This document shows positions 1 to 17,697 of a stretch of 64,000 bases of DNA, one piece after another. Every line of letters begins with the position of its first letter. Position 1 is the stretch's first letter. Source of the stretch: a virus; IMG/VR virus record IMGVR_UViG_3300032249_000861, positions 1-64,000 of that record; one strand, written 5' to 3'. The position numbers and the translations under genes are program-made. The notes under the pieces are model-generated. The model saw nothing but the letters and a program-made list of their open reading frames with translations. It had not been told where the DNA came from and ran no database searches.

Positions 1-88
1 ATCCACCATAGACCGAATAGAAGACGAAACCCACAACAGCAACGGCAGCAGCCGCAAGAATCGAACCAAACAAAATCACATCGTTCAT
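1..88 (-). CDS. Small membrane protein, truncated at the window edge (MNDVILFGSILAAAAVAVVGFVFYSVYGG...)
   Basis: Manual translation; ATG at 88-86 preceded by GAAAGGG; hydrophobic stretch; promoter at ~134-174. Confidence 0.6.
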   Translation of the reverse strand, partial: MNDVILFGSILAAAAVAVVGFVFYSVYGG

Positions 89-133
89 AGAAACCCTTTC
101 AAATTGAAAATCGATCACAACATCCATGCCACA

Positions 134-174
134 AGTCTACACTAATTATCGTCATTTGTCAAGTGGGAACTTTA
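134..174 (-). promoter_or_regulatory. Composite early promoter: TTGACA-17-TAGACT overlapping TAAA-17-GACGATAA
   Basis: Read directly on the minus strand; same architecture as the other cassette promoters. Confidence 0.7.
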
Positions 175-187
175 AAAAAATTTTGGT

Positions 188-346
188 TCACCACCCATTA
201 CGGCGACACTCTTCATTCCAAGCGTCTACCTCTGCTTTTTGCTTACGGGTAACTGCCGGACCCTCGCCCGTCAAGTAAGCGTCACGGGCTGCATCATAGC
301 CATCATCCGAATCTTCGTCATCGTACTCGTTATCATACCGACTCAT
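188..346 (-). CDS. Small acidic hypothetical protein (MSRYDNEYDDEDSDD...)
   Basis: ORF 188..403; likely start is ATG 346 after GAGG, because the promoter lies at ~375-416. Confidence 0.65.
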   Translation of the reverse strand: MSRYDNEYDDEDSDDGYDAARDAYLTGEGPAVTRKQKAEVDAWNEECRRNGW

Positions 347-374
347 CACCAACCTCACTTTCTTGTATGCCATC

Positions 375-416
375 ATTCTACCATATATTATCGGCAAATG
401 CAAGGGGCGAACTTGA
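375..416 (-). promoter_or_regulatory. Composite early promoter: TTGCAT-17-TAGAAT overlapping TCAA-17-GCCGATAA
   Basis: Direct reading of the minus strand. Confidence 0.75.
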
Positions 417-442
417 ATCTTACGAGATTGTAAGGATTGTCG

Positions 443-520
443 TAAAGTGTTGCAGCATAAAGACTTGCGACGACCCCGGCCCGCCCCGTCGGCCCTAAGT
501 GCTTGAACACAAAGGGTTTA
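443..520. repeat. 78-bp bipartite element E1 (box 443-467, GC core, box 496-520)
   Basis: Two boxes of pattern TAA-N4-TT-N7-AA-N4-TTR; 28-bp spacer containing GGCCCGCCCC. Confidence 0.9.
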
Positions 521-534
521 CGACGAGGGAGAGT

Positions 535-765
535 TTACTCAAAATCAACAAAGATGATCTGAGCGTAGCCGCGAGGCTTAACGGTATAGCCATCTCCATA
601 GTCAAGGGTATCGGCCTTAACAGCCGTCATACCAGCTAGAGCCTTAGCCTTACGAACAACACTGCGCTGGCTAGCATTTTTCTTGGGGATGAACTCGTAA
701 CGATTCACCCAACCAAAGTTAGCTTCACCACCAAAAGTATCCGTATGGGTAACAACGCACTTCAT
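535..765 (-). CDS. Hypothetical phage protein, 76 aa
   Basis: ORF track; ATGA overlap with the upstream gene; ends just before E1. Confidence 0.75.
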   Translation of the reverse strand: MKCVVTHTDTFGGEANFGWVNRYEFIPKKNASQRSVVRKAKALAGMTAVKADTLDYGDGYTVKPRGYAQIIFVDFE

Positions 766-905
766 TTTGCCAATTCCTTTGCTTTCATGGTTTCAAGATA
801 CAACTGTTCCAACATCTTCACACGATTTACTGCACGATCAGTCTCACGATTCATGAGTATAACAGCTTTCTCATGTGCTGTCAACTCTATCTTTTTCGTT
901 TTCAT
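762..905 (-). CDS. Hypothetical protein, 47 aa (MKTKKIELTAHEKAV...)
   Basis: Manual translation; ATGA overlaps at both ends. Confidence 0.6.
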   Translation of the reverse strand: MKTKKIELTAHEKAVILMNRETDRAVNRVKMLEQLYLETMKAKELAK

Positions 906-1057
906 TTGTTTTCTTCTTCTTTCTTCAACGGGCCACGATAGCCCCTGAACTTTCTCAACTCACCATAGTAGTTACGACTAGCAGACCCGTGCGAGGTCTT
1001 TTTCTTTTTAGGGTTTTGGTACATAACTTTCAACAAAAATTCATAATGAGGATCCAT
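902..1057 (-). CDS. Hypothetical basic protein, 51 aa (MDPHYEFLLKV...)
   Basis: Manual translation; AGGAG RBS. Confidence 0.55.
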   Translation of the reverse strand: MDPHYEFLLKVMYQNPKKKKTSHGSASRNYYGELRKFRGYRGPLKKEEENK

Positions 1058-1068
1058 TTTTTATACTC

Positions 1069-1224
1069 CTAACCAAACAACTCATATTCTTCATCGGTCA
1101 ATGCTACCTCATCGGGACGATAGCAGTTATTGCCGTACAGATCACGATTCTTAGGACGCTTTTCCCATTCGTCCATGAATCGGTTATACTCTTCGATACG
1201 CTTTTCTTCTTCGCTTTTCATCAT
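1069..1224 (-). CDS. Hypothetical protein, 51 aa (MMKSEEEKRIEEYNRF...)
   Basis: Manual translation; directly downstream of the promoter at ~1245-1282. Confidence 0.6.
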   Translation of the reverse strand: MMKSEEEKRIEEYNRFMDEWEKRPKNRDLYGNNCYRPDEVALTDEEYELFG

Positions 1225-1317
1225 TCACTCTCTTTTTCTACTCTATTATCGACAAGTATAGCAGAGAAACTTTAGGTGTCAAGCAGGAAGTTTTCTTACA
1301 ATATCGTAAGGTTATCG

Positions 1318-1395
1318 TAAAGCATTACAACATAAGGACTTACGCTTCGCCCGGCCTGCCCCGTTTGACGTAAGTGTTTACGCCATAAGGGTTTA
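1318..1395. repeat. 78-bp bipartite element E2
   Basis: Boxes 1318-1342 and 1371-1395; core GGCCTGCCCC. Confidence 0.9.
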
Positions 1396-1397
1396 GA

Positions 1398-1841
1398 TTA
1401 GGTGCAGTTGTAGGTGTCGGTGTAAACCTCGCACCCCATCTCACTAAGCCGTGCGGCCAGCTCCCTAACCAATTCCGTACGCTCAGTCAGAGTGTTGGGG
1501 GTTCCGTTGATATATTTGGGAGCCCAATATCCATTATCGTCATATGTACCAGCACCAAGATCGAGCTTTCCCAGAGCAACATCAACGAAATCCTTGCTCT
1601 CTTTCAGACCCCACAGCAGAGTGTTTCTTACGGCAGCAATGCACCGAATCTTCTCTTTGACAGGAACGCTTTGCAGAGTCAGATTCATGTGACGGGTGGG
1701 CTCAGAGCAACCACGATCACACGGAGACAGGCCGATTTCAATAGCCCTCTGAATCTCGTCACGAATAGTGTCGGAGATACTGGTGTTGCGGAGCAGCGAG
1801 AGAGCAGAGGTGAGAGCGAGCGAGAGGTTGATATTGTTCAT
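1398..1841 (-). CDS. Protein with a ribosomal protein bL12 (L7/L12) C-terminal-like domain
   Basis: KEKIRCIAAVRNTLLWGLKESKDFVD...ELAARLSEMGCEV resembles the bL12 CTD pattern KI-x-VIK-x-VR-x-TGLGLKEAK-x-LV...L-x-x-x-GA-x-V. Confidence 0.6.
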   Translation of the reverse strand: MNNINLSLALTSALSLLRNTSISDTIRDEIQRAIEIGLSPCDRGCSEPTRHMNLTLQSVPVKEKIRCIAAVRNTLLWGLKESKDFVDVALGKLDLGAGTYDDNGYWAPKYINGTPNTLTERTELVRELAARLSEMGCEVYTDTYNCT

Positions 1842-1942
1842 CTTGAAGTTCCTACTGGGGGTTTGGTTAGTGATTACACACTAGTCTACCATACATTATC
1901 GACCAATGCAAGAGGGTGTCTTGAAAAATTCTTTTTTTATCC

Positions 1943-2020
1943 TAAGTCTATTAGCTTCAAGGACTTGCGTCAAAAGCGGCCCGCCCCGTTTGCCCTAAGT
2001 GCTGTCGCACAAAGGGTTTA
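1943..2020. repeat. 78-bp bipartite element E3
   Basis: Boxes 1943-1967 and 1996-2020; core GGCCCGCCCC. Confidence 0.9.
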
Positions 2021-2031
2021 GGGGGAATGGC

Positions 2032-2307
2032 TCAGTCGTCGTATGGGCCATCTTCGTTATAGTCTACAAATCCCACAGCCTCATCAGCGTGGAAATCTTC
2101 CTGATAATCTAAATCTTCCCCATAACAGCCGTAATCTTCATCGGTTCCCCATCCTGCGGAAGCCAACGCAGATTCAGCATCACCATCCATACTATCATCA
2201 AACGAATCATCGTCAAATTCTCCAACGGTATCATCTTGCTCAAAATCGTATCCCTGTCCGTATTCCTCATTCCAGCCCTGATCAGCACTGTCGTAGCTCA
2301 TGGTCAA
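2032..2307 (-). CDS. Highly acidic small protein (motif DGDAESALASAGWGTDEDYG)
   Basis: ORF track; extreme D/E content and no K/R. Confidence 0.75.
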   Translation of the reverse strand: MTMSYDSADQGWNEEYGQGYDFEQDDTVGEFDDDSFDDSMDGDAESALASAGWGTDEDYGCYGEDLDYQEDFHADEAVGFVDYNEDGPYDD

Positions 2308-2367
2308 TCCCTCACAATGGTGGTGATGTAAAACAGGCCAACGTATCCGACAACAAAAGCAATTGCA

Positions 2368-2541
2368 CTAAGCATGATCATACTCCTCTGGAACAAATTC
2401 GTCAATAGCACCCACAACGTCTGCCCAATCCCAAAAGTTGACTTCCACACTAGGGTCGTCGATAGGCTCAACCATCGGCTCAACAATACCCGCTTCGGCC
2501 ATGTCGTTCAGAATGTCGTTGATCTCGTCGAAGTTCAGCAT
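2368..2541 (-). CDS. Acidic small protein (MLNFDEINDILNDMAEAG...)
   Basis: ORF 2368..2607; likely start 2541 after AGGA, downstream of the promoter. Confidence 0.65.
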   Translation of the reverse strand: MLNFDEINDILNDMAEAGIVEPMVEPIDDPSVEVNFWDWADVVGAIDEFVPEEYDHA

Positions 2542-2578
2542 GATTCTGATTCCTGTGGTTTCCGTTCGTGATGCTGCG

Positions 2579-2620
2579 ATTATACTCTTATTATCGGCCA
2601 GCGTCAAGCAGAAACTTGGA
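2579..2620 (-). promoter_or_regulatory. Composite early promoter: TTGACG-17-TATAAT overlapping CCAA-17-GCCGATAA
   Basis: Direct reading of the minus strand. Confidence 0.75.
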
Positions 2621-2671
2621 AAATTCCAGAATATAATTTCATGCCAAAGATGAAAAATCTTTTAGTTGACG

Positions 2672-2749
2672 TAAAGCGTTGGTACATAAAGACTTACGCT
2701 TCGCGGGGCGGGCCGGACTCGCGGTAAGTCCTTACTGGTGAAGGAGATA
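2672..2749. repeat. 78-bp bipartite element E4 (core inverted)
   Basis: Boxes 2672-2696 and 2725-2749; core GGGGCGGGCC; right box overlaps the stop of ORF 2732..2920. Confidence 0.85.
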
Positions 2750-2920
2750 CGTCAAGCCACACCCTAGAATGAAACACACCCCCAGTAGAACATAATCACT
2801 AATTTTCATCATTTTCCTCCATATACATGATATTTGACATACTAGCATACAGAATAATACCAACAATATACCCAAAAGCCACACTGATAAAATCAAACTG
2901 ATACATCCCTGTATCTCCAT
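2732..2920 (-). CDS. Small membrane protein with two hydrophobic segments
   Basis: ORF track; hydrophobic composition. Confidence 0.55.
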   Translation of the reverse strand: MEIQGCISLILSVWLLGILLVLFCMLVCQISCIWRKMMKISDYVLLGVCFILGCGLTYLLHQ

Positions 2921-2934
2921 TTTGGTTTAAGTGG

Positions 2935-3129
2935 TCAATCCCTGTATCCTACCCAGAAATCATCCCCATCATCACTCTTCATAAGGGTAAAACCTCTGGC
3001 CCTCATAGCCTCATACTCATGTATTCTCTGCCAAACTTCTCCCACAATAGAGAGAAAGTAGACAAACCCCAAAACAAAAAGCATAAGACCCATCCAAGCC
3101 CACACCAGAATAAAATCGCCCATGTTCAA
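2935..3129 (-). CDS. Small membrane protein
   Basis: ORF track; N-terminal TM segment; GGAGG RBS. Confidence 0.65.
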   Translation of the reverse strand: MNMGDFILVWAWMGLMLFVLGFVYFLSIVGEVWQRIHEYEAMRARGFTLMKSDDGDDFWVGYRD

Positions 3130-3329
3130 GCCTCCGTTTCGGCAGGGATATTGGTCAAATTCTCACACTGGTCAAGGTAGCACGACCGATACTCAGTATG
3201 TCCAATCTTCACAATCATCAACTTACCCTTGGGCTTATCTTCAACCCTACGAACCTCACCACGGAAGTCCTCACCCTTATAGCTAAACTCTACCCAATCA
3301 TACCGCTGGGGCAACACAATGTTACTCAT
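3126..3329 (-). CDS. Small beta-rich hypothetical protein (MSNIVLPQRYDWVEF...)
   Basis: ORF 3126..3377; likely start after GAGG. Confidence 0.65.
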   Translation of the reverse strand: MSNIVLPQRYDWVEFSYKGEDFRGEVRRVEDKPKGKLMIVKIGHTEYRSCYLDQCENLTNIPAETEA

Positions 3330-3425
3330 CTTTTCCTCTTGGTTACTGGTCATCTTCCCTATACCTATTATCGACATCCTACCACATCAGCCTTTAGTCT
3401 GCAACACCTTGCAATGCCGTAAGGT

Positions 3426-3629
3426 TCAGATTCTCCACTCAACAAATTTGAGCGTGAAAACTTGACCGGGATACTTACTGGCGATATACGCCCGTGCAGT
3501 CTCCTCACGATTGTCGGTGGCGCCAACGCCTTGAACAACCTTTCCGTCAATGATCACACTCCAAATCTTACGCTTCCGAATTTTGGGAAGCGAACCAATG
3601 AAACCATTCACACTCGTAACTTTTTCCAT
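3426..3629 (-). CDS. Hypothetical protein (MEKVTSVNGFIGSLPK...)
   Basis: ORF 3426..3740; promoter TTGACA-17-TATAAT at ~3658-3686 places the start downstream. Confidence 0.65.
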   Translation of the reverse strand: MEKVTSVNGFIGSLPKIRKRKIWSVIIDGKVVQGVGATDNREETARAYIASKYPGQVFTLKFVEWRI

Positions 3630-3732
3630 CTTCAACTCTCTCTTTCTTTCTGTCACCATTATACAAGTATTATCGTCATTTGTCAATAGCTTAGGCCAGA
3701 AAAACTTTCCTTGCAATGTCGTAAGGTTGTCG

Positions 3733-3810
3733 TAAGTCATTACCCCACAAGTACTTACGCTTCGCGGGGCGGGCCGCGTTTGCCCTAAGTGCTTATAGGG
3801 TAACGCTTTA
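3733..3810. repeat. 78-bp bipartite element E5 (core inverted)
   Basis: Boxes 3733-3757 and 3786-3810; core GGGGCGGGCC. Confidence 0.9.
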
Positions 3811-3845
3811 TGTCAACTGCTATAATTTTGTGCAGTAGTGATCGT

Positions 3846-4220
3846 TCATTCATCACTCTTGAAGCTGAACGGGCTGAGTTCCAGATGGGCGACCGCACCG
3901 TATTGCTTGGTCAGTTCTTCGACACGTTCACGACTTCCCGGCTTGCCAACCGGAACGATCATTGTGTCCTCACCCCCCACATAGCGTGGGTCAGCCTTTT
4001 CCTTGCGAGCTTTGCCAATGTTCTTCAGTGCGGCACGATTGAACTTGAGAACCTTTTCAGTCACAACGTAACGCTTGTGGTCAGTTACACCGTGAACATA
4101 GTCAACGTCGATGATAAACTGCTCATCGGTCACTTCGTGGCGAACGGGAATCGCGATACCCTTGAAGATCATACGGGCTTGACGCTCGGCATTTTCGATG
4201 ATGGGATACTTGGTTTTCAT
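3846..4220 (-). CDS. Hypothetical protein, 124 aa
   Basis: ORF track; own promoter TTGACA-16-TATAAT at 4261-4288. Confidence 0.75.
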   Translation of the reverse strand: MKTKYPIIENAERQARMIFKGIAIPVRHEVTDEQFIIDVDYVHGVTDHKRYVVTEKVLKFNRAALKNIGKARKEKADPRYVGGEDTMIVPVGKPGSRERVEELTKQYGAVAHLELSPFSFKSDE

Positions 4221-4295
4221 TTTCTTTTCTCTCTTAGGTCTATCGTTCTCTTGTGCGTGAATTATACCAAAAAACTTTTTCTTGTCAATCCCCTC

Positions 4296-4454
4296 TTATG
4301 CGGGGGATATCTCATGATCGCCACAATCCCAAAGGTTTCCACCTTCGGTACGCACGATCCACACATTCCCCTCATCGTAGGTATAGGAAACAATCTTTCC
4401 TACAATCTTTTTCTCGAATCCCTTGAGCACAACCTTATCACCAATTTCAAACAT
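4296..4454 (-). CDS. Small SH3/KOW-like hypothetical protein (MFEIGDKVVLKGFEKKIVGKIV...)
   Basis: Manual translation; F-x-IGD-x-V start is typical of small phage beta-barrels; promoter at ~4487-4523. Confidence 0.6.
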   Translation of the reverse strand: MFEIGDKVVLKGFEKKIVGKIVSYTYDEGNVWIVRTEGGNLWDCGDHEISPA

Positions 4455-4587
4455 TCTTTTCTCTCTTTCTTTCTTCTCTATCTCTTATATCGACATTATA
4501 CCACAGCTTTCTTGAGTTTGCAAGAGAAATCCAGAGATTTTATTGTCAAGAGATTTTGACAAAACTTTTCGTCATTTCCTTTGGGCT

Positions 4588-4603
4588 TGGCACACCATTT
4601 GCT
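4588..4603 (+). promoter_or_regulatory. Exact sigma54 -24/-12 consensus TGGCAC-N5-TTGCT
   Basis: Sequence TGGCACACCATTTGCT, immediately left of E6. Confidence 0.4.
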
Positions 4604-4612
4604 AAGTCGTCG

Positions 4613-4690
4613 TAAAGTCTTATGGGGCAAGTACTTACGTCGAGCGGGGCCCGCCCGCCTTGCCCTAAGTGCTTTAGGGTCAAGGACTTA
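4613..4690. repeat. 78-bp bipartite element E6
   Basis: Boxes 4613-4637 and 4666-4690; core GGGGCCCGCCCGCC. Confidence 0.9.
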
Positions 4691-4693
4691 CGG

Positions 4694-5011
4694 TTAGTAT
4701 ACCAGATTCATATCGGCTACCGTTACCCCATCAGTATATGGTGTACCATCGTCCAGGTACCATTCTCCCTTGCGTTGATACACACGTACAGGCGAATACT
4801 GGTTGATTCTATCTTTAGTGGTAATGGTATACCATCCACCCGTATTGAGTGTAGCAGAGTTATCGGGATGAATACGTACAACGGTCGTACCATGTAAGGC
4901 GATACCTACGCTACCATCAGGAAGAATTTCCGCATAGGTATTGTTACCCACCTTGCGAGTATTCCTCTTAGTCTTACCATGTACCATCTTAGTAGCTTCG
5001 TAGTGTGTCAT
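4694..5011 (-). CDS. Hypothetical phage protein (MTHYEATKMVHGK...LNTGGWYTITTKDRINQY)
   Basis: ORF 4694..5101; likely start 5011 after AAGGA. Confidence 0.75.
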   Translation of the reverse strand: MTHYEATKMVHGKTKRNTRKVGNNTYAEILPDGSVGIALHGTTVVRIHPDNSATLNTGGWYTITTKDRINQYSPVRVYQRKGEWYLDDGTPYTDGVTVADMNLVY

Positions 5012-5021
5012 TTTGTTTTCC

Positions 5022-5141
5022 TTAGTCGTTTTCGTGCAGAATGGAATGAACAGCGTTACCCACTTCGTGGGCAGTATACGAAATAAAACCAGCAAAAGCA
5101 ATCAAGGCGAACAGTTGAGCGTATTCGATAACCGTAATCAT
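5022..5141 (-). CDS. Small membrane peptide, 39 aa (MITVIEYAQLFALIAFAGFISY...)
   Basis: Manual translation; promoter TTGACA-17-TAGAAT just upstream. Confidence 0.5.
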   Translation of the reverse strand: MITVIEYAQLFALIAFAGFISYTAHEVGNAVHSILHEND

Positions 5142-5241
5142 TAGACTCTCTCTTTCTTGTGTCATCATTCTACATCTATTATCGACCAATGTCAACCCCT
5201 AGCAGCAAGAAAAACTTCCTTACAATACCGTAAGCTTTCTC

Positions 5242-5319
5242 TAAGTCTATACGGAATAAGCACTTACGTCGAGTTCGGCCCGTCCGCCTAGCCCTAAGTA
5301 CTTATAGGGCAGGGGTTTA
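5242..5319. repeat. 78-bp bipartite element E7
   Basis: Boxes 5242-5266 and 5295-5319; core GGCCCGTCCG. Confidence 0.9.
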
Positions 5320-5321
5320 CG

Positions 5322-5537
5322 TCATGAGGCGTGAATGAACACCGTTTCGCTTACTGTACGGTTGGTCACCGTCACGATCCAATTCTTTCCACTACCATCC
5401 TCACGCATGATGCCATTGATAAGGCCCACATGAGCGTTACCCCTTGGGTCGATCACACAGTGATACTTGCCAGCTCGCATAGCAGCGAAAATCTTGTCAA
5501 GATTATTCGTCACAGTTTTATAGTTAGTCTGAAGCAT
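5322..5537 (-). CDS. Hypothetical protein, 71 aa
   Basis: ORF track; GAGG RBS; stop abuts E7. Confidence 0.75.
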   Translation of the reverse strand: MLQTNYKTVTNNLDKIFAAMRAGKYHCVIDPRGNAHVGLINGIMREDGSGKNWIVTVTNRTVSETVFIHAS

Positions 5538-5603
5538 CTTTTTCCTCTTGGGTTGATTCTATTCTAGTGTTTTGCTCTTACGTTGTCAATACTGTACGAA
5601 CTA

Positions 5604-5837
5604 TCAGTTGACCGCAAAATCATCGATAACGTATCCCATATCGTCAATCTCGATCCAACCGCCATCGTCCATGAACCCAAGCTCATCATCGATTGCAATC
5701 TGGTTGTATCCGCTTGCACGAACATGGTCGAGAAGATCAGCAGCAAAAGCAACTCGACCAACCAAAGTAGAAAGGCTAGTGTTGTCAAGGAACTCCCTCA
5801 ACTCAGCCACAGTGTTCAGAACGATCAGGTTTTCCAT
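5604..5837 (-). CDS. Acidic hypothetical protein (MENLIVLNTVAELREFL...)
   Basis: ORF 5604..5879; likely start after GAGGA. Confidence 0.7.
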   Translation of the reverse strand: MENLIVLNTVAELREFLDNTSLSTLVGRVAFAADLLDHVRASGYNQIAIDDELGFMDDGGWIEIDDMGYVIDDFAVN

Positions 5838-5969
5838 TTTCTTATCCTCTTTTTGTCTCTTGGTCTCTTGTGCTTTCATTATACAGTATTTATCGACACT
5901 TTCAAGAGAAATCTTTGGAATTTTTGAAATATAATTTCATGCCAAACAAAATCTTTTTTATATTTATCA

Positions 5970-6047
5970 TAAGTCTATATGTGGTAAGCACTTACGTCAA
6001 GCGGGGCCCGTCCAACAAGACATAAGTCCTTGCCTACCATATACTTA
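5970..6047. repeat. 78-bp bipartite element E8 (rightmost copy)
   Basis: Boxes 5970-5994 and 6023-6047; core GGGGCCCGTCC. Confidence 0.85.
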
Positions 6048-6157
6048 GGGGGTTTTTTCGTTTTCAAGGGGCTAAGGGGCCGCACCGTCAAAACCGCCGG
6101 GAGGTCCATAAACAATAAGCACCCCCATATATAATTGGCCAGTTTAATAGCCAGTTA

Positions 6158-6462
6158 TTAGTATCTGTTTGGAACATAAACCGTTTGAGGCAATGTTACC
6201 ACTTCATACTTTTTAAAAAAGCAACAGTATCGACGTTCCACTAGTATATTTTGATAACTTGTCACAGGAACGAACAGAGGAACTGCAGGAGCAATAGTTA
6301 CGGTTGGAGCATAATATTGAATCATCTGAAAATTTTGAACTACTGGAGCTTGTTGACTCACTATTGGAGCCCGATAAACATACGGCCCCATCCTTCATCT
6401 CCATTAACACTACCACAACATCCTACACAAACTAAAAACACTGTTGCTAATAGCTTTTTCAT
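6158..6462 (-). pseudogene. Frameshifted secreted Pro/Val/Tyr-rich protein
   Basis: Signal peptide MKKLLATVFLVCVG (ATG 6462) is out of frame with PYVYRAP...PNRY at ~6385; resembles 9312..9626. Confidence 0.5.
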
Positions 6463-6553
6463 AAAAAATCCTCTATATTAGAAAGTAATTGACCGATTTC
6501 CCGCTAATACTATTATCGACAGACCTTGCTCGGAACTTTAGAAATAGCAGAAA

Positions 6554-8359
6554 CTACTCCACAGTCACACTTTTTGCTAAATTTCTTGGCTTATCAACGT
6601 TTAAGTTCAATTTTATAGCATAATAATAGGCTAATAGCTGAAGAGGTATCACAGACAATAGTGGACTTAGCTGATCTATTGTTGAAGGAACCAGAATATC
6701 ACAATGTTCTTGAGATCCTAATAATATTACAGGACCATTTCTTGCTTTTATTTCTTGAATATTATTTTGAAGCTTCTGATATTGATCCATGTTGTTTGCT
6801 ATAACTAAAGTTGGAGTATCTTTATCAACCAAAGCTAAAGGCCCGTGTTTCATCTCTGCTGCAGCATATCCTTCAGCATGAATATAGCTTATCTCTTTAA
6901 GTTTTAAAGCGCCCTCTAAAGCTATTGGAAAGTTGTATCCTCGTCCAAGAAACAAACAATTTTTAATGCTTTTGTATTTTTCAACTGTTTGTATTAGCTG
7001 ATCACTATCGCTTAGTGTTTTTTTAATTAAGTATGGTAGTTGTAGTATGTTACTAATTAAATTTTTTCTAATATTAGTATTAGAGTTTTCTTGATTTTGA
7101 TTTATCCATAACGATAATAGAAGCAATACCAAAACCTGATTCAAAAAAGTTTTAGTACTAGCTACTCCTATTTCTACTCCTGATCTTAAGAAGATACCAC
7201 AATCTGTCATTCGTGCCATTGTTGAATTAGGAACATTACATATACCAATAATAGTAGCTCCTTGAGCTTTTGCTTTTTCTAATGCTGATAATGTATCTGC
7301 AGTTTCCCCACTTTGACTAATTCCAATAACAATATCACCAGGACCAATTGCTGTTGTTCGATATTTAAATTCACTAGCATACTCAACACTAACTTTAATA
7401 TTATTTAATTCTTCTATGTAGTACTTGCCCAATAATCCAGCATTCCAACTGGACCCACATGCTACTATGGTAATATGATTAGCAGATGCTAATATCTTTT
7501 CATATCCTAATAATCCCCCTAGTCTAATACTATCTTTAAAAAGCCTGCCACTAAAACATTGAGCTATAGTATCAGGTTGTTCATTTATCTCCTTAAGCAT
7601 GTAAGAATCATAAGCCCCCTTGTCAGAAGGCATTCTATGATCTAACACCTTTTCAATTTCACAATCCACCTCAACACCACATGTCATATCATATGTAATG
7701 ATTTGATCACCGATTTGACATATGTTATTATCTTTCAAATAGATTAGATCTGTAATATTTTCATCAATGCCCATCTTATCAGAAGACACATAATATTCCT
7801 GATCACCCACCCCGACTATTAAAGAGCTTCCTTTTCTTGCACAAACAAGAGTATTAGGATTATCTTTGTCAACAATTACAATAGCATAAGCCCCCATAAC
7901 TTGTTCTAAAGCCAATTTAACAGCTTCAAATAACGACAGATTATTTAAAATCATAATATCGTATACCAGATATAATAATACTTCGCTGTCAGTATCTGAA
8001 GAAAAATTATATTTCTTAGAAAGTTCAGCTTTTAAATCTTTATAATTCTCAATGATACCGTTATGAACTAAAGACAACCGCCTATCTTCTGTAACATGAG
8101 GATGACAGTTGTTAACAGATGGTTGTCCATGAGTTGCCCATCTAGTATGAGAGATAGCACAGTATGATCTCAATAATGACGAGCCTACCTCTTTTTTTAA
8201 AGATTCTACTGGCCCCACAGACTTATAAACTTTAAATTCTGGACCACAAACATAGCACACCCCAGCACTATCATAGCCTCTATATTCTAGATGAGATAGT
8301 TTGTCTAATATATTGTTAGAGCAGTTGTTCTTTCCTATATATGCTACAATTCCGCACAT
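6554..8359 (-). CDS. glmS: Glutamine--fructose-6-phosphate aminotransferase
   Basis: N-terminal MCGIV, YRGYDSAG, HTRWATHG, HNGIIEN, SQSGETADT, EMKHGP, C-terminal PRNLAKSVTVE. Confidence 0.98.
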   Translation of the reverse strand: MCGIVAYIGKNNCSNNILDKLSHLEYRGYDSAGVCYVCGPEFKVYKSVGPVESLKKEVGSSLLRSYCAISHTRWATHGQPSVNNCHPHVTEDRRLSLVHNGIIENYKDLKAELSKKYNFSSDTDSEVLLYLVYDIMILNNLSLFEAVKLALEQVMGAYAIVIVDKDNPNTLVCARKGSSLIVGVGDQEYYVSSDKMGIDENITDLIYLKDNNICQIGDQIITYDMTCGVEVDCEIEKVLDHRMPSDKGAYDSYMLKEINEQPDTIAQCFSGRLFKDSIRLGGLLGYEKILASANHITIVACGSSWNAGLLGKYYIEELNNIKVSVEYASEFKYRTTAIGPGDIVIGISQSGETADTLSALEKAKAQGATIIGICNVPNSTMARMTDCGIFLRSGVEIGVASTKTFLNQVLVLLLLSLWINQNQENSNTNIRKNLISNILQLPYLIKKTLSDSDQLIQTVEKYKSIKNCLFLGRGYNFPIALEGALKLKEISYIHAEGYAAAEMKHGPLALVDKDTPTLVIANNMDQYQKLQNNIQEIKARNGPVILLGSQEHCDILVPSTIDQLSPLLSVIPLQLLAYYYAIKLNLNVDKPRNLAKSVTVE

Positions 8360-9282
8360 GATTTAGTAGTTAAGTACCATTCTATAGTTGTTTTTAATCC
8401 TGATGTAAAATCTTGTTTCGGTTCCCAGTCTAATAACTGTTTAGCTTTAGCAATATTCAAAACTCTTCGTGGCTGGCCATTTGGTTTATCACTATCCCAA
8501 AGAATATCTCCTCTATAATTAACCAACTCTTTAATCTTATCAGCTAACAATAGAATACTAATTTCTTTATTAGACCCAATATTAATAGGACTAGGATCCT
8601 TAACCTTCTCCATGCCGTTAACTATCGCCCTTGCAGCATCCTGCACATACAAAAACTCTCTTGTTGCTGATCCGTCTCCCCAACAAGAAACATTGGGGAA
8701 GTTATATTTTTTAGCTATGACAAATTTTCTAATTAGCGCAGGAATAACATGAGAAGAAGCTGGATCAAAGTTATCAAAAGGTCCATACAGATTAGTTGGT
8801 ACTATTACACAACTATTTAATCCATATTGTTTTTTATAAGCCTCTAACATAACAAACAAAGCCTTTTTAGCAACACCATACGGAGCATTAGTTTCTTCAG
8901 GATATCCATCCCAAATATCTTCTTCCATAAAAGGAGCATCACAAAATTTTGGATAAGCACATACTGTACCAATTTGAACAAACTGGCTAACCCCGTATAA
9001 TCTGCTCATCTCAATAAGATTAGATCCCATAACCATATTACTATAGAAGAATCTTCCAGGATTGGCCATATTCGCCCCGATACCTCCAACCTCTGCTGCC
9101 AGATGAATCACAGTATCAGGCTTATGCTCTTCAAATAGTTTTTTAACAGTATTATAATCAGTTAGATCATAGTCTTTCTTACGGGGGATAAATATATCGG
9201 TTTGGCCGTAATTCCTATTCAATAGTTCCTGATAAACAAATCGGCCTAAAAATCCACCACCACCAGTTAATAATATTTTCAT
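8344..9282 (-). CDS. fcl: GDP-L-fucose synthase (epimerase/reductase)
   Basis: GGGGFLG, HLAAEVGGIGAN, GTVCAYPK, YGVAKK, PTNLYGP, SHVIPALIRK, REFLYV. Confidence 0.95.
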   Translation of the reverse strand: MKILLTGGGGFLGRFVYQELLNRNYGQTDIFIPRKKDYDLTDYNTVKKLFEEHKPDTVIHLAAEVGGIGANMANPGRFFYSNMVMGSNLIEMSRLYGVSQFVQIGTVCAYPKFCDAPFMEEDIWDGYPEETNAPYGVAKKALFVMLEAYKKQYGLNSCVIVPTNLYGPFDNFDPASSHVIPALIRKFVIAKKYNFPNVSCWGDGSATREFLYVQDAARAIVNGMEKVKDPSPINIGSNKEISILLLADKIKELVNYRGDILWDSDKPNGQPRRVLNIAKAKQLLDWEPKQDFTSGLKTTIEWYLTTKSCAEL

Positions 9283-9311
9283 ATCTTATTTTTTTTCCTA
9301 TATTCTATACT

Positions 9312-9626
9312 TTAATACCTATAAGGAGCAACCATCATACCATTGCTATAATATGAACCAGGATTACCAAACCAACAAAGCCCATGATAATATACGGGGG
9401 TAATATGCTGGTATTGATAAATCGTAAAATTAGGTATGACTATTGGCCGAAATTCCCAAGTATGTACTAACACTTCTTTCTGCACCAATACTAGAACAAA
9501 AGAAACGTTTGGAGCTTGAGAGTATACTATTGATTGAGACGGAACAGTTTGATATATAACATCTTGACCATAAGAAACTGAACAAAACGTTAGGGCCAAA
9601 AGAAATAAGACACTTTTAATCATCAT
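9312..9626 (-). CDS. Secreted Pro/Val/Tyr-rich small protein
   Basis: Signal peptide; C-terminal PYRY. Confidence 0.65.
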   Translation of the reverse strand: MMIKSVLFLLALTFCSVSYGQDVIYQTVPSQSIVYSQAPNVSFVLVLVQKEVLVHTWEFRPIVIPNFTIYQYQHITPVYYHGLCWFGNPGSYYSNGMMVAPYRY

Positions 9627-9695
9627 AAGATGCTTCCTTTACATGAGAAAATAAGAATATTAGTATTATGATACAACTTAAACTTTTATATTCCA

Positions 9696-9732
9696 AAAAT
9701 AAAAGCTACCAGCTCAAATAAACCGGTAGCTT
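9696..9732 (-). terminator. Putative intrinsic terminator
   Basis: AAGCTACC...GGTAGCTT stem followed by a T-run on the minus strand, after ORF 9762..9992. Confidence 0.5.
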
Positions 9733-9761
9733 CTATCTGTTATTAGCTATTTGTAAATAGG

Positions 9762-9992
9762 TCAATTAATTGATGACGGAACAGCATCATCTGATACCTT
9801 AACAATCTTACGAGGACGACCCCTACTCTTCTTAAGAGCAAGCTTTCTTCGCTGTCTTCGCACCATAGCAGTAGTAACATTCTCTCCAGTCATCTTACTA
9901 AGAGATCCGGCCAGAAATTCGTCACACAAACTTGTGTGGTTGTTTTGAATATAGTCCAGTTCAGCAGATGTCCACTTCTTATAGTTGGCCAT
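9762..9992 (-). CDS. Small DNA-binding protein (Myb/HTH-like, with an AT-hook-like RGRPRK)
   Basis: KWTSAELDYI...VRRQRRKL...SRGRPRK; AGGAG RBS. Confidence 0.65.
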   Translation of the reverse strand: MANYKKWTSAELDYIQNNHTSLCDEFLAGSLSKMTGENVTTAMVRRQRRKLALKKSRGRPRKIVKVSDDAVPSSIN

Positions 9993-10214
9993 AATAACTC
10001 CTTAAAAAAATCTTGTTTAATAATTGACAATTTGTCCAATGAACATATTATAGTAAGAGTTGGCAAGTTTGAGGCAACAAAAAAATGAATGAAAATAATA
10101 TAAAAACTAATAACATTATCGACTCTGTATTGTATATCAGGGCATCGGGCAGTATAGAGGACGTATCCTCAGATCTAGAGTCTCAGCCCACAAAAACCAT
10201 AGCTCAACTACTAG

Positions 10215-10898
10215 ATGAAAAAACAAAAGAAACCCATACCGATCAAGATAAAACCTCAAACTAATTTACCGAATGGCGTAAATACAGAAGAGTTTTTACA
10301 AGCGTTAGAAAATATTAGCAAAAGATTAGCTAATAAATTTAGGTTTGCATATCATAGCGTAGAGGACATGAAACAACAAGCAGCAATATTCGCTCTTGAG
10401 GGTTTGGAAAACTATGATAATAAAAGACCATTAGAGAATTTCTTATGGACTCATGTTCGCAATCGTTTATTTAATTACAAACGAAACAACTATCAGCGAC
10501 CAGACAAGCCTTGTCACTCATGCCCTTTCTTTGACAAAACCTATAAACTATCACTAAATCAATGTGAGAAATATTGTAATAAAGACGATTGTGAATTATA
10601 TTCTGCTTGGGCAAAACGTAATGAGGTTAAGAAAAATATTATACAACCATCATACATAGAAACTTCATTACATCAATCTGTTCAGCCGACAGATTTTGAT
10701 CTTAGCATACAAAATCAGGAATTAATTAAATTTCTAGACACTAGTGTTCAAAGTGAATTTCGTGAAAGTTACCTTAAACTTAAGCATGGGGCCAAAATTT
10801 CTAAGTTAGAACTTAAAAAATTACAACAACACATCTTTACTCTAATGGAGGCTAATAATTGGAAGCTAACAACATTCCAAGAAAACGAGGACAATTAA
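10215..10898 (+). CDS. Phage RNA polymerase sigma factor-like protein with a Cys-rich insertion
   Basis: Region-2-like EDMKQQAAIFALEGLENYD..PLENFLWTHVRNRLFNYKR; CHSC...CEKYC..DC cluster. Confidence 0.7.
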   Translation: MKKQKKPIPIKIKPQTNLPNGVNTEEFLQALENISKRLANKFRFAYHSVEDMKQQAAIFALEGLENYDNKRPLENFLWTHVRNRLFNYKRNNYQRPDKPCHSCPFFDKTYKLSLNQCEKYCNKDDCELYSAWAKRNEVKKNIIQPSYIETSLHQSVQPTDFDLSIQNQELIKFLDTSVQSEFRESYLKLKHGAKISKLELKKLQQHIFTLMEANNWKLTTFQENEDN

Positions 10899-11680
10899 GC
10901 CTCGACGAAGAAAAATACATTAGAGAGAACTACAAACAACTAAGTTTACAGCAAATAGCTGATAACTTAAATCGTACAGTATCTCCAGTACAAAGATATA
11001 TTTCTGAGAATCAGCTCTCTATTGTAGAAACAGATAATGATGCAGAAATATTAAAGCATAAACTTCATACTAAAACTTTCTGGCGAGAAATACAGAGACA
11101 GTTTGATGTTGATACTGGAGAACTTGCATATTTTGAAGATACTTGGATTGGTTTGATAAAACAGTTTAGAGAGGATGTTCTACCAGCCGAAGAACTACAA
11201 ATAAAACAATTTATTACTATTGATATTTTGATTAACAGAAGCATGAAGGAGCGAAAGAGACATATCGCCGAAACAGAAAAGCTTCAGAGACAAGTTGACA
11301 AAGAATATGAAAAAACAGAAACAGAAAGAGACATTCCGAAACTTGCAAACCTAGAAACCCAACTGAGCTTTGCTCGCAATAGCATTGCCAATTATACCAA
11401 TGAGTATACAAAGCTATTAAATGAACAACAAAAGATTAGTAAAGATTTAAAGGCGACCCGAGAGCAGAGAATTAAAAGAATCGAAGATGGGAAAAGTAGC
11501 TGGGTAGGATTAATTAGAATGTTAGAAGATGAAGAAGTCAGGGAGAGAGAGGGTAGGGAAATGGAAATTTTGAGCATGGCAACCGAAAAGGTTAAGAAGG
11601 AATTACAAGGATATCATAATTACCAAGACGGAGTTGTTGACAAACCACTCTTAACACCAGAAAGCATTAATAATGAATAA
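10859..11680 (+). CDS. HTH + coiled-coil protein, probable terminase small subunit
   Basis: N-terminal HTH (LSLQQIADNLNRTVSPVQRY), helical body, C-terminal LKATREQR; upstream of TerL. Confidence 0.5.
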   Translation: MEANNIPRKRGQLSLDEEKYIRENYKQLSLQQIADNLNRTVSPVQRYISENQLSIVETDNDAEILKHKLHTKTFWREIQRQFDVDTGELAYFEDTWIGLIKQFREDVLPAEELQIKQFITIDILINRSMKERKRHIAETEKLQRQVDKEYEKTETERDIPKLANLETQLSFARNSIANYTNEYTKLLNEQQKISKDLKATREQRIKRIEDGKSSWVGLIRMLEDEEVREREGREMEILSMATEKVKKELQGYHNYQDGVVDKPLLTPESINNE

Positions 11681-12677
11681 AACAGCACTTATTAGTGGAG
11701 TAACAGGACAAGACGGATCATATCTTGCAGAATTATTGCTTGATTTAGACTATTCAGTCATTGGATTATACAGAAGATCCAGTTCTTCTAATCTTGAAAG
11801 AATATCCCACATATCTAGTCCAAATCTAAAACTAGAAGAATTTGATCTGACCGACCCAAGTTCATGCCTTTCAGTAATCAATAAATATAAACCGAACGAG
11901 TTCTACAACCTAGCTGCGCAAAGTCATGTTGGAACAAGTTTCAACCAGCCAACCACAACCTTTGAAATTGATACTATTGGAGTAATTAATCTCTTGGAGA
12001 GTATCAGAAAATTTTCTCCCAGTACAAGATTCTATCAGGCCAGTACCAGCGAAATGTTTGGCTCTAATTATTCTGTAGATGTTGGAAATAACAAATATCA
12101 AAATGAAGATACTAAGTTTTTGCCACAAAGTCCCTACGCTGTTGCAAAGATGGCAAGTCATAGAATGATACAGATATATAGAGAAGCTTATGGTTTATAT
12201 ACTTGTTCTGGGATTTTATTTAATCACGAAAGTCCACGAAGAGGTGTAAATTTTGTTACTCGTAAGATAACCAATTTTATCGGTCAACTTGTTTCCGGAT
12301 CAATATCACCTGCATCAAAACTTGGATTAGGCAACTTAGAAGCTAGTAGAGACTGGGGACATGCTAGAGACTATGTTAAAGGTATGTTTTTAATGTTACA
12401 ACAAGATGAAGCAGACGATTTTGTACTGAGTACTGGAGATACATATACCGTAAGAGAATTTTGTGAAAAAGCATTTTCTCATGTTGATTTAAATTGGTCA
12501 GATTACATATTTATTGATCCAGAGTTCTATAGGCCCTGTGAAGTTAATTATCTTAAAGGTGACAGTACGAAGGCCAGAAATAAACTGGGATGGTCCCCTA
12601 ATGTATCCTTTGATGATCTGGTTAAAGATATGGTAGATAGTGATATTTCTAAATATAAAAGTAGTTCATATGTTTAA
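11673..12677 (+). CDS. gmd: GDP-mannose 4,6-dehydratase
   Basis: GVTGQDGSYLAE, YNLAAQSHV, YQASTSEMFG, SPYAVAK, GILFNHESPRRG, RDWGHARDYV. Confidence 0.97.
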   Translation: MNKTALISGVTGQDGSYLAELLLDLDYSVIGLYRRSSSSNLERISHISSPNLKLEEFDLTDPSSCLSVINKYKPNEFYNLAAQSHVGTSFNQPTTTFEIDTIGVINLLESIRKFSPSTRFYQASTSEMFGSNYSVDVGNNKYQNEDTKFLPQSPYAVAKMASHRMIQIYREAYGLYTCSGILFNHESPRRGVNFVTRKITNFIGQLVSGSISPASKLGLGNLEASRDWGHARDYVKGMFLMLQQDEADDFVLSTGDTYTVREFCEKAFSHVDLNWSDYIFIDPEFYRPCEVNYLKGDSTKARNKLGWSPNVSFDDLVKDMVDSDISKYKSSSYV

Positions 12678-12948
12678 ACGTAATTTTGATGATCCAGAAT
12701 ATAAAAAGTGGAGAACCAAGGTATACAAAAGAGACGAACACCAGTGTCAATGGATAGGGTGTACTATGAGAAAAAAACTGAATGCTCACCATATTAAAAC
12801 TTGGGCTAATTTTCCTGGTTTGAGATTTGATGTTAATAATGGAATTACTTTATGCTATTATCATCACAAATTAATCCAAGGATTAGAGCATATATACGAA
12901 GCGGTATTCTTAAAAATATTAGCGGATAAAAAAAATGACTCATTATAA
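12670..12948 (+). CDS. HNH endonuclease
   Basis: RD-x-x-x-CQ-x-x-GC, LNAHHIK, NGITLC-x-x-HH; likely start MFKRNF overlapping the gmd stop. Confidence 0.85.
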   Translation: MFKRNFDDPEYKKWRTKVYKRDEHQCQWIGCTMRKKLNAHHIKTWANFPGLRFDVNNGITLCYYHHKLIQGLEHIYEAVFLKILADKKNDSL

Positions 12949-13414
12949 TAACTTTACTATTATCGTAGACACAAGAGAACAACAACCCTGGGTTTTTGAG
13001 TCTTATACTACAGCAAATAAAAAACTGGATACCGGAGATTATAGTATAGAAGGATTAGAGCACTTAATTTGTGTTGAAAGAAAAAAGAGTGCTAGCGAAT
13101 TTGCTAATAATGTTGTAGAAAGCAGATTTAAAGATGTAATAATGAGAATGAGTAGTATTAAATATGCATTTTTATTACTAGAATTCGATCTAGAAGACCT
13201 TCTTATTTATCCTGTCGGATCTACTGTTCCTAAAAAAATGTGGGATAAAATTAAAATTAGTCCAGCTTTCTTAATTAAAAATATATTAGAGCTAGAGATG
13301 TCTCACAATATAAAAGTATTTTTCTGTGGTAATGCTACAAATGCTGCCAAGCTTGCAGAAATGATTCTTAAAAAAATTCACTACATAGAAGTGGTTAAAC
13401 AGAATAATGCTTAA
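12935..13414 (+). CDS. ERCC4/XPF-family nuclease
   Basis: IIVDTREQ, LDTGDYS, VERKK. Confidence 0.85.
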   Translation: MTHYNNFTIIVDTREQQPWVFESYTTANKKLDTGDYSIEGLEHLICVERKKSASEFANNVVESRFKDVIMRMSSIKYAFLLLEFDLEDLLIYPVGSTVPKKMWDKIKISPAFLIKNILELEMSHNIKVFFCGNATNAAKLAEMILKKIHYIEVVKQNNA

Positions 13415-15428: not shown

Positions 15429-15484
15429 AAGTGTATAAGAAGTTTAATCCTTTTACATTCGCATTATAATAGTATTATAACAAT

Positions 15485-17683: not shown

Positions 17684-17697
17684 CTAAGGTAAAAACT

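Follow-up and report, generated by a model that had tools for sequence, protein, structure and literature searches.

A 78-bp composite of four oriented sites between the early genes of uncultured phages: a candidate protein-bound boundary of transcription units

The stretch of DNA analysed here (the window, 64,000 nucleotides) comprises positions 1–64,000 of a phage contig of 110,025 bp in IMG/VR, record IMGVR_UViG_3300032249_000861, whose completeness is estimated at 73%. Its early region carries a 78-bp element in eight copies, and these were found present and in register at the starting positions given in an annotation made previously from the sequence alone (the initial annotation), i.e. 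443, 1318, 1943, 2672, 3733, 4613, 5242 and 5970. The element is built from four copies of one short motif in alternating orientation and at exact spacing, has a fixed polarity with respect to transcription, lies in most copies close to a stop codon and upstream of a promoter, recurs in related large, uncultured freshwater phages and shows no hairpin covariation. We propose, with some reserve, that it quite possibly serves as a duplex-DNA platform for a multimeric protein marking the boundaries of transcription units, and that with the adjoining promoter it would make up a regulatory cassette resembling the promoter-early stem-loops (PeSLs) of T4-type phages.

Results

Four copies of one motif at fixed spacing

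Gapless alignment of the copies revealed near-invariant blocks with free positions between them, and the element could be described as four copies of a site of ∼11–14 bp with the core TAAGTNCTT, often preceded by GACG, in the layout → ← (GC-rich centre) → ←, that is tail-to-tail, head-to-head and tail-to-tail. Read along transcription, site A consists of TAA, four semi-variable bases and TT, and is followed by seven free bases; site B is AAGNACTTA, mostly with GGG next to it; the middle between B and C comprises 24–28 bp of G+C-rich sequence, with neither A nor T among its central eight bases (consensus GGCCGGCC); next comes site C, CGTAAGTNCTT, again with seven free bases after it; and site D consists of AA, four semi-variable bases and TTA, usually with CG next. 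A, B, C and D represent one motif in alternating orientation, each spanning ∼14 bp together with its flanks (often GACG), and the half-site accepts the same C/G change on either arm independently. Sites A and B form one 25-bp box, and sites C and D the other.

The site centres are ∼21, 32 and 21 bp apart, corresponding to two, three and two helical turns, and judging from these coordinates all four sites would therefore lie on one face of the helix. A box-to-box distance of 53 bp, noted earlier for the window, was confirmed in 8/8 copies and extended to the relatives, where the boxes were exactly 53 bp apart from start to start in 466 of ∼480 close pairs (97%), 52 bp apart in seven and 54 bp apart in two. 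Copies inside one genome are only 60–77% identical. The initial annotation had concluded that geometry rather than sequence is conserved, with the N4 and N7 positions varying freely. This held for the 7-bp spacers, but the N4 positions are occupied by a few recurrent variants with strong dependence between neighbours, and the consensus had to be revised, as the inner half-sites are conserved far better and AAGNACTTA(CG) and (C)NTAAGTNCTT are near invariant. Likewise, the reported likeness of each half-box to the AANNNNTTR part of the IHF consensus is correct though trivial; the full consensus WATCAANNNNTTR was present in only 45 of ∼1,900 half-boxes, and an IHF binding site was rejected on these grounds.

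Throughout the 110,025-bp record the originally described pattern gave eight forward matches, all within 443–6047, and the reversed control pattern gave none. A position weight matrix derived from other phages only scored the eight copies at 60–89 bits, compared with −43 for the next best position of the contig and a peak of −35 in the shuffled genome; the 110-kb contig thus contains no copy beyond these eight. The site was not found singly elsewhere in the contig either, for instance at the divergent promoter near 10 kb, and two loose matches to the box pattern at 97,936 and 98,389 were dismissed as A/T-rich chance matches.

The element defines a family in uncultured phages

A pattern specifying only the two inner half-sites retrieved more than 119 stretches from IMG/VR contigs, usually several per locus, and the ten outer positions left open by this pattern were also present in 241 of 248 viral-contig matches. 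When the same pattern was applied to 596 Gb of bacterial and archaeal genomes, 70 stretches were obtained, 59 of which had the outer positions at chance level. The 11 true copies in this collection (185,579 species) occur mostly on small lake contigs of metagenome-assembled genomes (MAGs) assigned to unrelated phyla and look like mis-binned phage DNA; one MAG contig of 141 kb that bears the element also carries a 75%-identical terminase large subunit (TerL). A host repetitive extragenic palindromic (REP)-like repeat or a bacterial interspersed mosaic element (BIME), the former having been named in the initial annotation as a finding that would speak against its own reading, was rejected, 59 of the 70 genome-collection matches being of chance quality and the 11 true copies lying on small MAG contigs of conflicting taxonomy.

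A matrix scan of the fetched loci yielded 549 matches, corresponding to at least 523 distinct copies on more than 100 metagenomic phage contigs. Five relatives rated complete by CheckV (230–244 kb) carry 14–17 copies each with zero control matches, and the copies form a single cluster of 16–19 kb located 4–15 kb from TerL. In keeping with an earlier suggestion, the array continues beyond the left edge of the window: relatives carry several further elements after the homologue of the leftmost gene (2–127), and the array is cut on this side because the contig begins at window base 1. The TerL of element-bearing contigs is 55–96% identical to that of the window, and a comparison with isolated phages gave no TerL above 26% identity and neither a cultured relative nor a host. 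A nucleotide search with bases 1–6600 against isolated phage genomes gave no match, and a literature search on intergenic palindromic repeats in phage early regions turned up only analogies (PeSLs and the HF2 intergenic repeats) and no description of the element.

Polarity, position and adjoining promoters

The coding strand at each copy was called from the flanking GC skew, which agreed with the tblastn strand in 269/269 cases and was used in place of the coverage by open reading frames (ORFs), a strand caller that left 492 of 523 copies undecided. The GGG-bearing half was located upstream in 353 copies and downstream in 40, and in cross-validation the direction in which a copy is transcribed was correctly predicted from its internal sequence for 470 of 507 copies (93%). 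In ∼69% of 473 copies the upstream stop codon ended between −26 and +15 bp from the element start, with distance peaks at +2, +3 and −3, and the element's own TAA/TAG triplets often constituted the stop.

On the other side, a promoter with at least nine of 12 consensus positions was detected within 200 bp downstream of 418 of 473 copies, and the promoters that follow the elements of the window match 10–12 of the 12 positions on the coding strand. The aligned flanks display a complete strong promoter, with a tract of A/T resembling an UP element followed by TTGACA and either TAGAAT or TATAAT, and with an overlapping TAAAG...CCGATAA that resembles sigma-28-type promoters; many of the remaining copies are followed by the TAAAG...CCGATAA motif alone and others by further repeated motifs. 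The distance between the element end and the −35 hexamer peaks at 20, 30–31, 41–42, 53, 64 and 85 bp, which suggests helical phasing. The TAAAG...(G)CCGATAA motif is like that of sigma-28 (FliA-type) with a spacing ∼2 bp wider than in the textbook form, and the phage encodes a divergent sigma-70-family protein at 10215–10898.

Lack of hairpin covariation

Among 100 diverse copies, a global dyad was paired at 64.4% compared with 65.1% after shuffling (469 of 500 shuffles at least as high), and two box-internal hairpins at 68.6% compared with 70.3% (499 of 500 shuffles at least as high). With 307 copies less than 80% identical to one another, the excess of pairing at variable positions stayed within 0.03 in every register. 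The 40 top mutual-information pairs were almost all adjacent columns, which is the signature of alternative motif versions, and none of them suggested base pairing. A conserved hairpin is unlikely because no base-pairing register covaries.

Predicted RNA folds of the eight copies had z values from −0.4 to −5.3, four of them at or below −3, and the family mean of −1.9 was no more than expected from conserved inverted motifs. A search of Rfam at a permissive threshold gave no match. Hairpin-plus-T-run terminators were not detected on the coding strand at any of the elements, and the region-wide count of terminator-like structures (16 versus 12.1 ± 3.9 in shuffles) was at chance level; an intrinsic (Rho-independent) terminator was rejected, since a G+C-rich hairpin followed by a T-run is found at no element. 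As pairing equals that of shuffles and the folds are inconsistent, it is therefore sequence and geometry on duplex DNA that are conserved, not pairing, and four oriented sites so exactly spaced would most simply be read by a DNA-binding protein that is multimeric.

Gene turnover and tests for recombination

Small genes of the array are common to relatives at 50–100% amino-acid identity, with cassettes differing in presence and order: L038 is reordered, two units are missing from L066, one promoter–gene module has moved in L123, and L035 contains one duplicated cassette. Between the same two genes, a ∼185-bp unit composed of element, short palindrome, promoter and Shine–Dalgarno (SD) sequence is found in the window, L035 and L047, and only ∼10 bp in L066, so that element, promoter and SD come and go together as one unit; in the window this unit consists of the element at 5242–5319, the palindrome at 5218–5237 and the promoter at 5195–5167. 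In the source study, contigs of sister populations join at element or promoter edges, which is weak evidence because the joints involve repeats.

The initial annotation had anticipated that shuffling would leave breakpoints at the elements, and across relatives no such concentration was observed; turnover with breakpoints elsewhere had been named in advance as speaking against an integron-like array, and this is largely what was found. The next gene was the same in other loci at a frequency of 0.24–0.28 across an element, 0.29–0.34 across tight junctions and 0.19–0.22 across other gaps. BLAST segment ends were only twofold enriched at elements, and near-identical elements shared only the upstream gene in 22%, only the downstream gene in 15% and neither in 15% of cases. 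All three quantitative tests (adjacency, segment ends and flanking genes) fail to single the elements out; turnover is thus pervasive and helped by all repeated regulatory DNA, and the elements are not dedicated recombination sites.

Consistent with the earlier statement that a recombinase is missing, neither Phage_integrase nor Resolvase matched in the contig itself or in three of the four near-complete relatives; in the remaining relative a single match fell below threshold, and Resolvase had no match in five records. A serine resolvase res site was rejected on the Resolvase result and on the position of the dyad axis, which falls on a base because the boxes are 25 bp long and not of even length. 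For a tyrosine-recombinase core site the arms and the 7-bp spacing are present, but the spacers vary from box to box (information ∼0.3 bits or less) and also from one orthologous element to another, and such non-identical spacers speak against this class of enzyme because it needs matching overlap regions. An integron attC site was discarded as well, the pairing given above being that of the shuffled expectation, Phage_integrase being without a match in the contig and three of the four relatives, and each cassette having its own promoter. Finally, a miniature inverted-repeat or other transposon-like element was rejected for lack of target-site duplications: 473 copies had no direct-repeat flanks of 3, 4 or 6–9 bp, and seven (1.5%) matched at 5 bp.

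A conserved small protein as candidate binder

The ORF at 9762–9992 (minus strand), which heads the leftward gene block running into the array, encodes a small conserved protein with 347 homologues and 29 invariant residues among the first 60. Its model is a confident three-helix bundle of the helix-turn-helix (HTH) type (pLDDT ∼93, residues 11–50), behind which comes a basic tail with RGRP that resembles an AT hook. The sole match in Pfam was a weak one to the AT hook, and PDB sequences gave no significant match; the nearest folds were the HTH domains of a small terminase and of GcrA, all with E-values above 0.5, and an Atlas lead to GcrA scored 0.85 and counts as a lead only. The gene lies between TerL and the array in 11/11 genomes at least 91% complete with a related TerL, once 140 bp before the first element. 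The protein is a candidate binder of the element, again as a lead only.

The eight elements and their setting in the window

The phage is siphovirus-like, with TerL at 13407–15428, portal and tail genes, and a giant tape-measure-type ORF starting at 42243. In two relatives (G012 and G013; loci L017 and L018) TerL matches in two pieces of one open frame of ∼1,030 aa, with an insertion of ∼350 aa after residue ∼92 that could be an intein or another inserted domain. Bases 1–6100 of the window contain ∼22 small ORFs, every one on the minus strand, and ∼10 near-consensus sigma-70-type promoters, also on the minus strand; transcription through the array runs from right to left. The G+C content of this region is 44.9%, and 44.2% even without the elements, versus 36.2% in the remaining contig; the same step as this surplus of ∼9 percentage points was seen in relative G001 (L195, 1–4000 versus 4000–18000).

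All eight elements are oriented with the minus strand. In the direction of transcription the first is E8 (5970–6047; 60 bits), followed by a promoter at 5905–5878. E7 (5242–5319; 75 bits) starts 2 bp after a stop codon and precedes the promoter of the ∼185-bp unit described above. The best-scoring copy, E6 (4613–4690; 89 bits), lies 3 bp downstream of the stop of gene 4694–5011 and is followed by a promoter at 4523–4495, whereas E5 (3733–3810; 77 bits) has a gap of 35 bp to its stop codon and a promoter at 3686–3658 with 12/12 consensus matches. E4 (2672–2749; 67 bits) overlaps the stop codon of gene 2732–2809 (gap −18 bp; promoter 2607–2579), E3 (1943–2020; 66 bits) lies 11 bp after the stop of gene 2032–2307 (promoter ∼1925–1890), E2 (1318–1395; 75 bits) 2 bp after that of gene 1398–1841 (promoter 1282–1255) and E1 (443–520; 72 bits) 14 bp after that of gene 535–765 (promoter ∼404–377). 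The initial observation that E1–E7 follow a stop codon is borne out by these gaps, while E8 stands 110 bp from the nearest upstream ORF; a near-consensus, minus-strand promoter after each element was verified in 8/8. The promoters form a series from 127 to 5905 (minus strand) with one or two per cassette, many having an upstream A/T tract and the overlapping TAAAG...CCGATAA. Five short palindromes (CTTRC, 5–8 bp, GTAAG) at 418–436, 1294–1313, 3407–3426, 3709–3728 and 5218–5237 share the half-site of the element; each has a promoter on one side and either a stop codon or an element on the other, and none occurs elsewhere in the contig.

Further repeats were noted in the promoter flanks. A 45-bp repeat at 2604–2648 and 5902–5946, between element and promoter, reads TTTGGCAT, five bases, TATAT on the coding strand and may be a further regulatory site; relatives have a related motif (TGTGCC, ∼18 bp, GGCACA) at the corresponding position. 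In loci L014, L022, L040, L134 and L174, some elements are followed by three to four tandem copies of a ∼13-bp motif (GCAAAATGCTACA-like) instead of the promoter flank seen otherwise.

The intervals between elements, described before as holding one to four unrelated genes, were found to hold one to five, and the genes are indeed without paralogy between cassettes. The element spacings recur as 875/625/729 and then 880/629/728 bp, and tblastn with E-values up to 10 showed no paralogy between cassettes as a cause of these repeating lengths. Pfam and PHROGs assigned almost no function to cassette proteins. The product of 1398–1841 (minus strand), a protein of 147 aa, narrowly passes the Pfam cut-off for the C-terminal domain of ribosomal protein L7/L12 (26.4 bits, E 9e-6) and may, going by this match, be a mimic of a translation-factor-binding domain. 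The gene at 4694–5011 (minus strand) matches Pfam Kyano_Gp96 (27.1 bits), a family of T4-like cyanophages, and with its presence in 36 loci is among the most widespread array genes.

Discussion

The initial annotation had offered two readings of the array. A phased protein-binding scaffold that insulates transcription units fits the rigid geometry, the probable location of the sites on one face of the helix, the lack of hairpin covariation and the placement at unit boundaries; integron-like recombination sites are poorly supported with regard to recombinase genes, spacers, covariation, promoters and adjacency. In the mechanism that we favour, the composite platform on double-stranded DNA would bind a sequence-specific protein, most simply as four protomers acting as two dimers. 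The platform occupies the gap that separates the stop codon at the end of a small early operon from the UP element and promoter of the operon that follows. When occupied, the element would act as a transcription-unit boundary that stops or attenuates read-through from the strong upstream promoter in the manner of a polar roadblock, and/or would set the activity of the adjacent promoter. Element and promoter together would constitute a regulatory cassette of ∼150–190 bp analogous to T4-type PeSLs, and as a secondary effect the repeated homology may make it easier for early genes to be gained, lost and reshuffled. A stop or attenuator that is polar and factor-dependent is proposed because it would fit the place taken by the PeSL terminator, the fixed polarity, the close apposition to stop codons, the presence of more than one promoter type and the absence of hairpin-plus-T-run terminators. 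A broader view, which we put forward with less confidence still, is that the element may represent an undescribed class of phage 'punctuation', in which a rigid, polar, four-site nucleoprotein platform acts as a factor-dependent terminator or insulator ending every early unit and helically phased to the next promoter, and from which whole arrays (∼19 kb) of host-takeover genes, each independently promoted, are built and exchanged in an uncultured freshwater phage clade (∼150–244 kb).

Several observations weigh against a protein-bound boundary. The best candidate for a binding protein, the conserved HTH protein of 9762–9992, was not found at the threshold used in three array-bearing records (CheckV at least 91% complete), in two of which the array abuts the contig end. 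The inner-arm stem is kept in the minimum-energy RNA fold of 55% of 307 copies, and sense RNA is on family mean 1.0 ± 0.35 kcal/mol more stable than antisense RNA. The periodicity of the promoter distances is dominated by one common flank class, with a broad Rayleigh statistic (10.5–12 bp). Furthermore, several promoter types follow the elements at varied distances, which argues against a single fixed activator geometry, and ∼4 of ∼12 promoters in the window are without an upstream element, which is therefore not required for a promoter.

The two RNA observations would be accounted for by an element acting at the 3' end of the transcript, whose inner arms and G+C-rich top would fold into a hairpin serving as a terminator, as a shield for the 3' end or as the target of a double-strand-specific RNase, comparable to PeSL stem-loops or to the sites at which RNase III acts between the early genes of T7. 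Such a hairpin would also explain the location 2–14 bp after the stop codon in most copies, a position analogous to that of the PeSL stem-loop (PMC2839356), the polarity that follows transcription and the low z values of four of the eight folds. We nevertheless consider it unlikely, because covariation is missing in any register over 100–307 diverse copies, the outer sites and N positions would be mismatched in ∼60–70% of copies, a T-run after the stem, a terminator-like match at any element and an Rfam match were not found, and a hairpin needs no four equally conserved alternating motifs at exact spacing. The differing order and content of cassettes in L038, L066 and L123, the presence or absence of the element-plus-promoter unit, the joints of sister-population contigs at element or promoter edges, the twofold enrichment of BLAST segment ends and the near-identical elements that share only one flanking gene or neither would all be compatible with a repeated homology patch or selfish repeat, persisting by mediating the exchange of early cassettes between co-infecting relatives and devoid of a sequence-specific factor of its own. 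This appears improbable, as a homology patch needs neither an exact 53-bp spacing nor four oriented sites or invariant bases amid free spacers; copies sharing 60–77% identity within a genome are a poor substrate for homologous recombination, adjacency breaks are no commoner at elements than at other gaps, and target-site duplications are lacking.

A protein–DNA site with a role outside transcription, such as a strong topoisomerase or gyrase site relieving supercoils that arise between very strong promoters of like direction, a polar barrier to replication forks or a checkpoint in stepwise DNA entry, would share with the protein-bound boundary the rigid, dyad-like, helically phased platform with its G+C-only centre and its polarity, and would agree with the confinement to one promoter-loaded region beside the packaging genes. 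There is little to recommend it: positive evidence for any such role was not found, and transcription gives a simpler account of why the elements are so closely tied to stop codons and promoters. Least probable is a role as integron-like, site-specific recombination sites, with each 25-bp box serving as a 9-7-9 tyrosine-recombinase core that excises or inserts cassettes. The 9-7-9 architecture is that of a lambda-Int-type core site, the elements are direct repeats along the array and cassette content varies; set against this are the missing integrase and resolvase genes in the phage's own contig and three of four near-complete relatives, 7-bp spacers that differ between all boxes and orthologous elements, the lack of attC-like covariation, a promoter in every cassette and breakpoints that are not concentrated at elements.

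If a protein-bound boundary does separate every early operon, it would be an unusual way to keep many strong co-directional promoters independent in an array from which canonical terminators appear to be absent. The element is a compact and sharp signature by which the early region of these phages, probably devoted to host takeover and the scene of turnover among hundreds of small orphan genes, can be located in metagenomic contigs, and together with its factor it might be put to use as an insulator that can be moved between genetic constructs. The concept of mobile regulatory cassettes, described until now for T4-type phages, is thereby extended to an unrelated uncultured group.

PeSLs are regulatory cassettes of T4-type phages (Arbiol et al. 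2010, PMC2839356; Comeau et al. 2014, PMC4122927), the upstream part of which is a stable stem-loop shown to block polymerases (PMC2839356; PMC4122927). Like them, the elements described here belong to repeated composite intergenic modules situated between small, mostly orphan early genes in a hyperplastic region, combine a consensus sigma-70 promoter and upstream A/T-rich tract with a preceding G+C-rich element, and appear to be linked to gene insertion, deletion and replacement between relatives without a dedicated recombinase. The promoter and A/T tract expected of such an intergenic module were found with the elements, and a stable upstream stem-loop was not, given the lack of covariation, the inconsistent folds and the missing hairpin-plus-T-run. 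Gene exchange of the PeSL kind is suggested by the unit insertion or deletion, the reordered cassettes and the contig joints, but boundaries between genes that carry no element lose their adjacency just as often. The stem-loop of PeSLs is replaced here by a fixed 78-bp arrangement of four oriented, exactly spaced sites that neither covaries nor folds consistently, and T4-type myoviruses are replaced by uncultured siphovirus-like phages.

Resemblances to other systems are more partial. REPs and BIMEs of enterobacterial chromosomes are likewise G+C-rich repeats placed just after stop codons between units, and BIMEs are composite and bind IHF and gyrase; REPs, in contrast, form hairpins and belong to host chromosomes, whereas the element lacks hairpin covariation and, apart from 11 copies on small MAG contigs of conflicting taxonomy, is absent from the genomes of 185,579 species. 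With attC sites and tyrosine-recombinase cores it has in common the imperfect dyad, 9-bp inverted arms, 7-bp spacer and arrays of small cassettes, but not conserved folding, an integrase or identical spacers, and its cassettes are self-promoted. Stoperators of cluster A mycobacteriophages, the sites of the L5 repressor gp71, are intergenic, oriented with transcription and thought to stop elongating polymerase. They are single asymmetric sites of ∼13 bp distributed genome-wide in a temperate phage with a known repressor. The many intergenic copies oriented with transcription (470 of 507) are a likeness to stoperators, from which the element differs as a 78-bp four-site composite confined to one region of 16–19 kb, with only a candidate HTH protein and no known repressor or integrase. 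Polar protein–DNA barriers are also formed by TTF-I at the 'Sal box' and Reb1 in ribosomal DNA, and by Tus–Ter and RTP–Ter, RTP sites binding two dimers. With these the element would share, in logic only, its location where a heavily transcribed unit ends and the next promoter is about to begin, the organisms, proteins and sequences being unrelated. Repeated regulatory cassettes and punctuation sites in phage early regions are thus known; what is unusual here is that a rigid architecture of four sites stands where a stem-loop would be expected.

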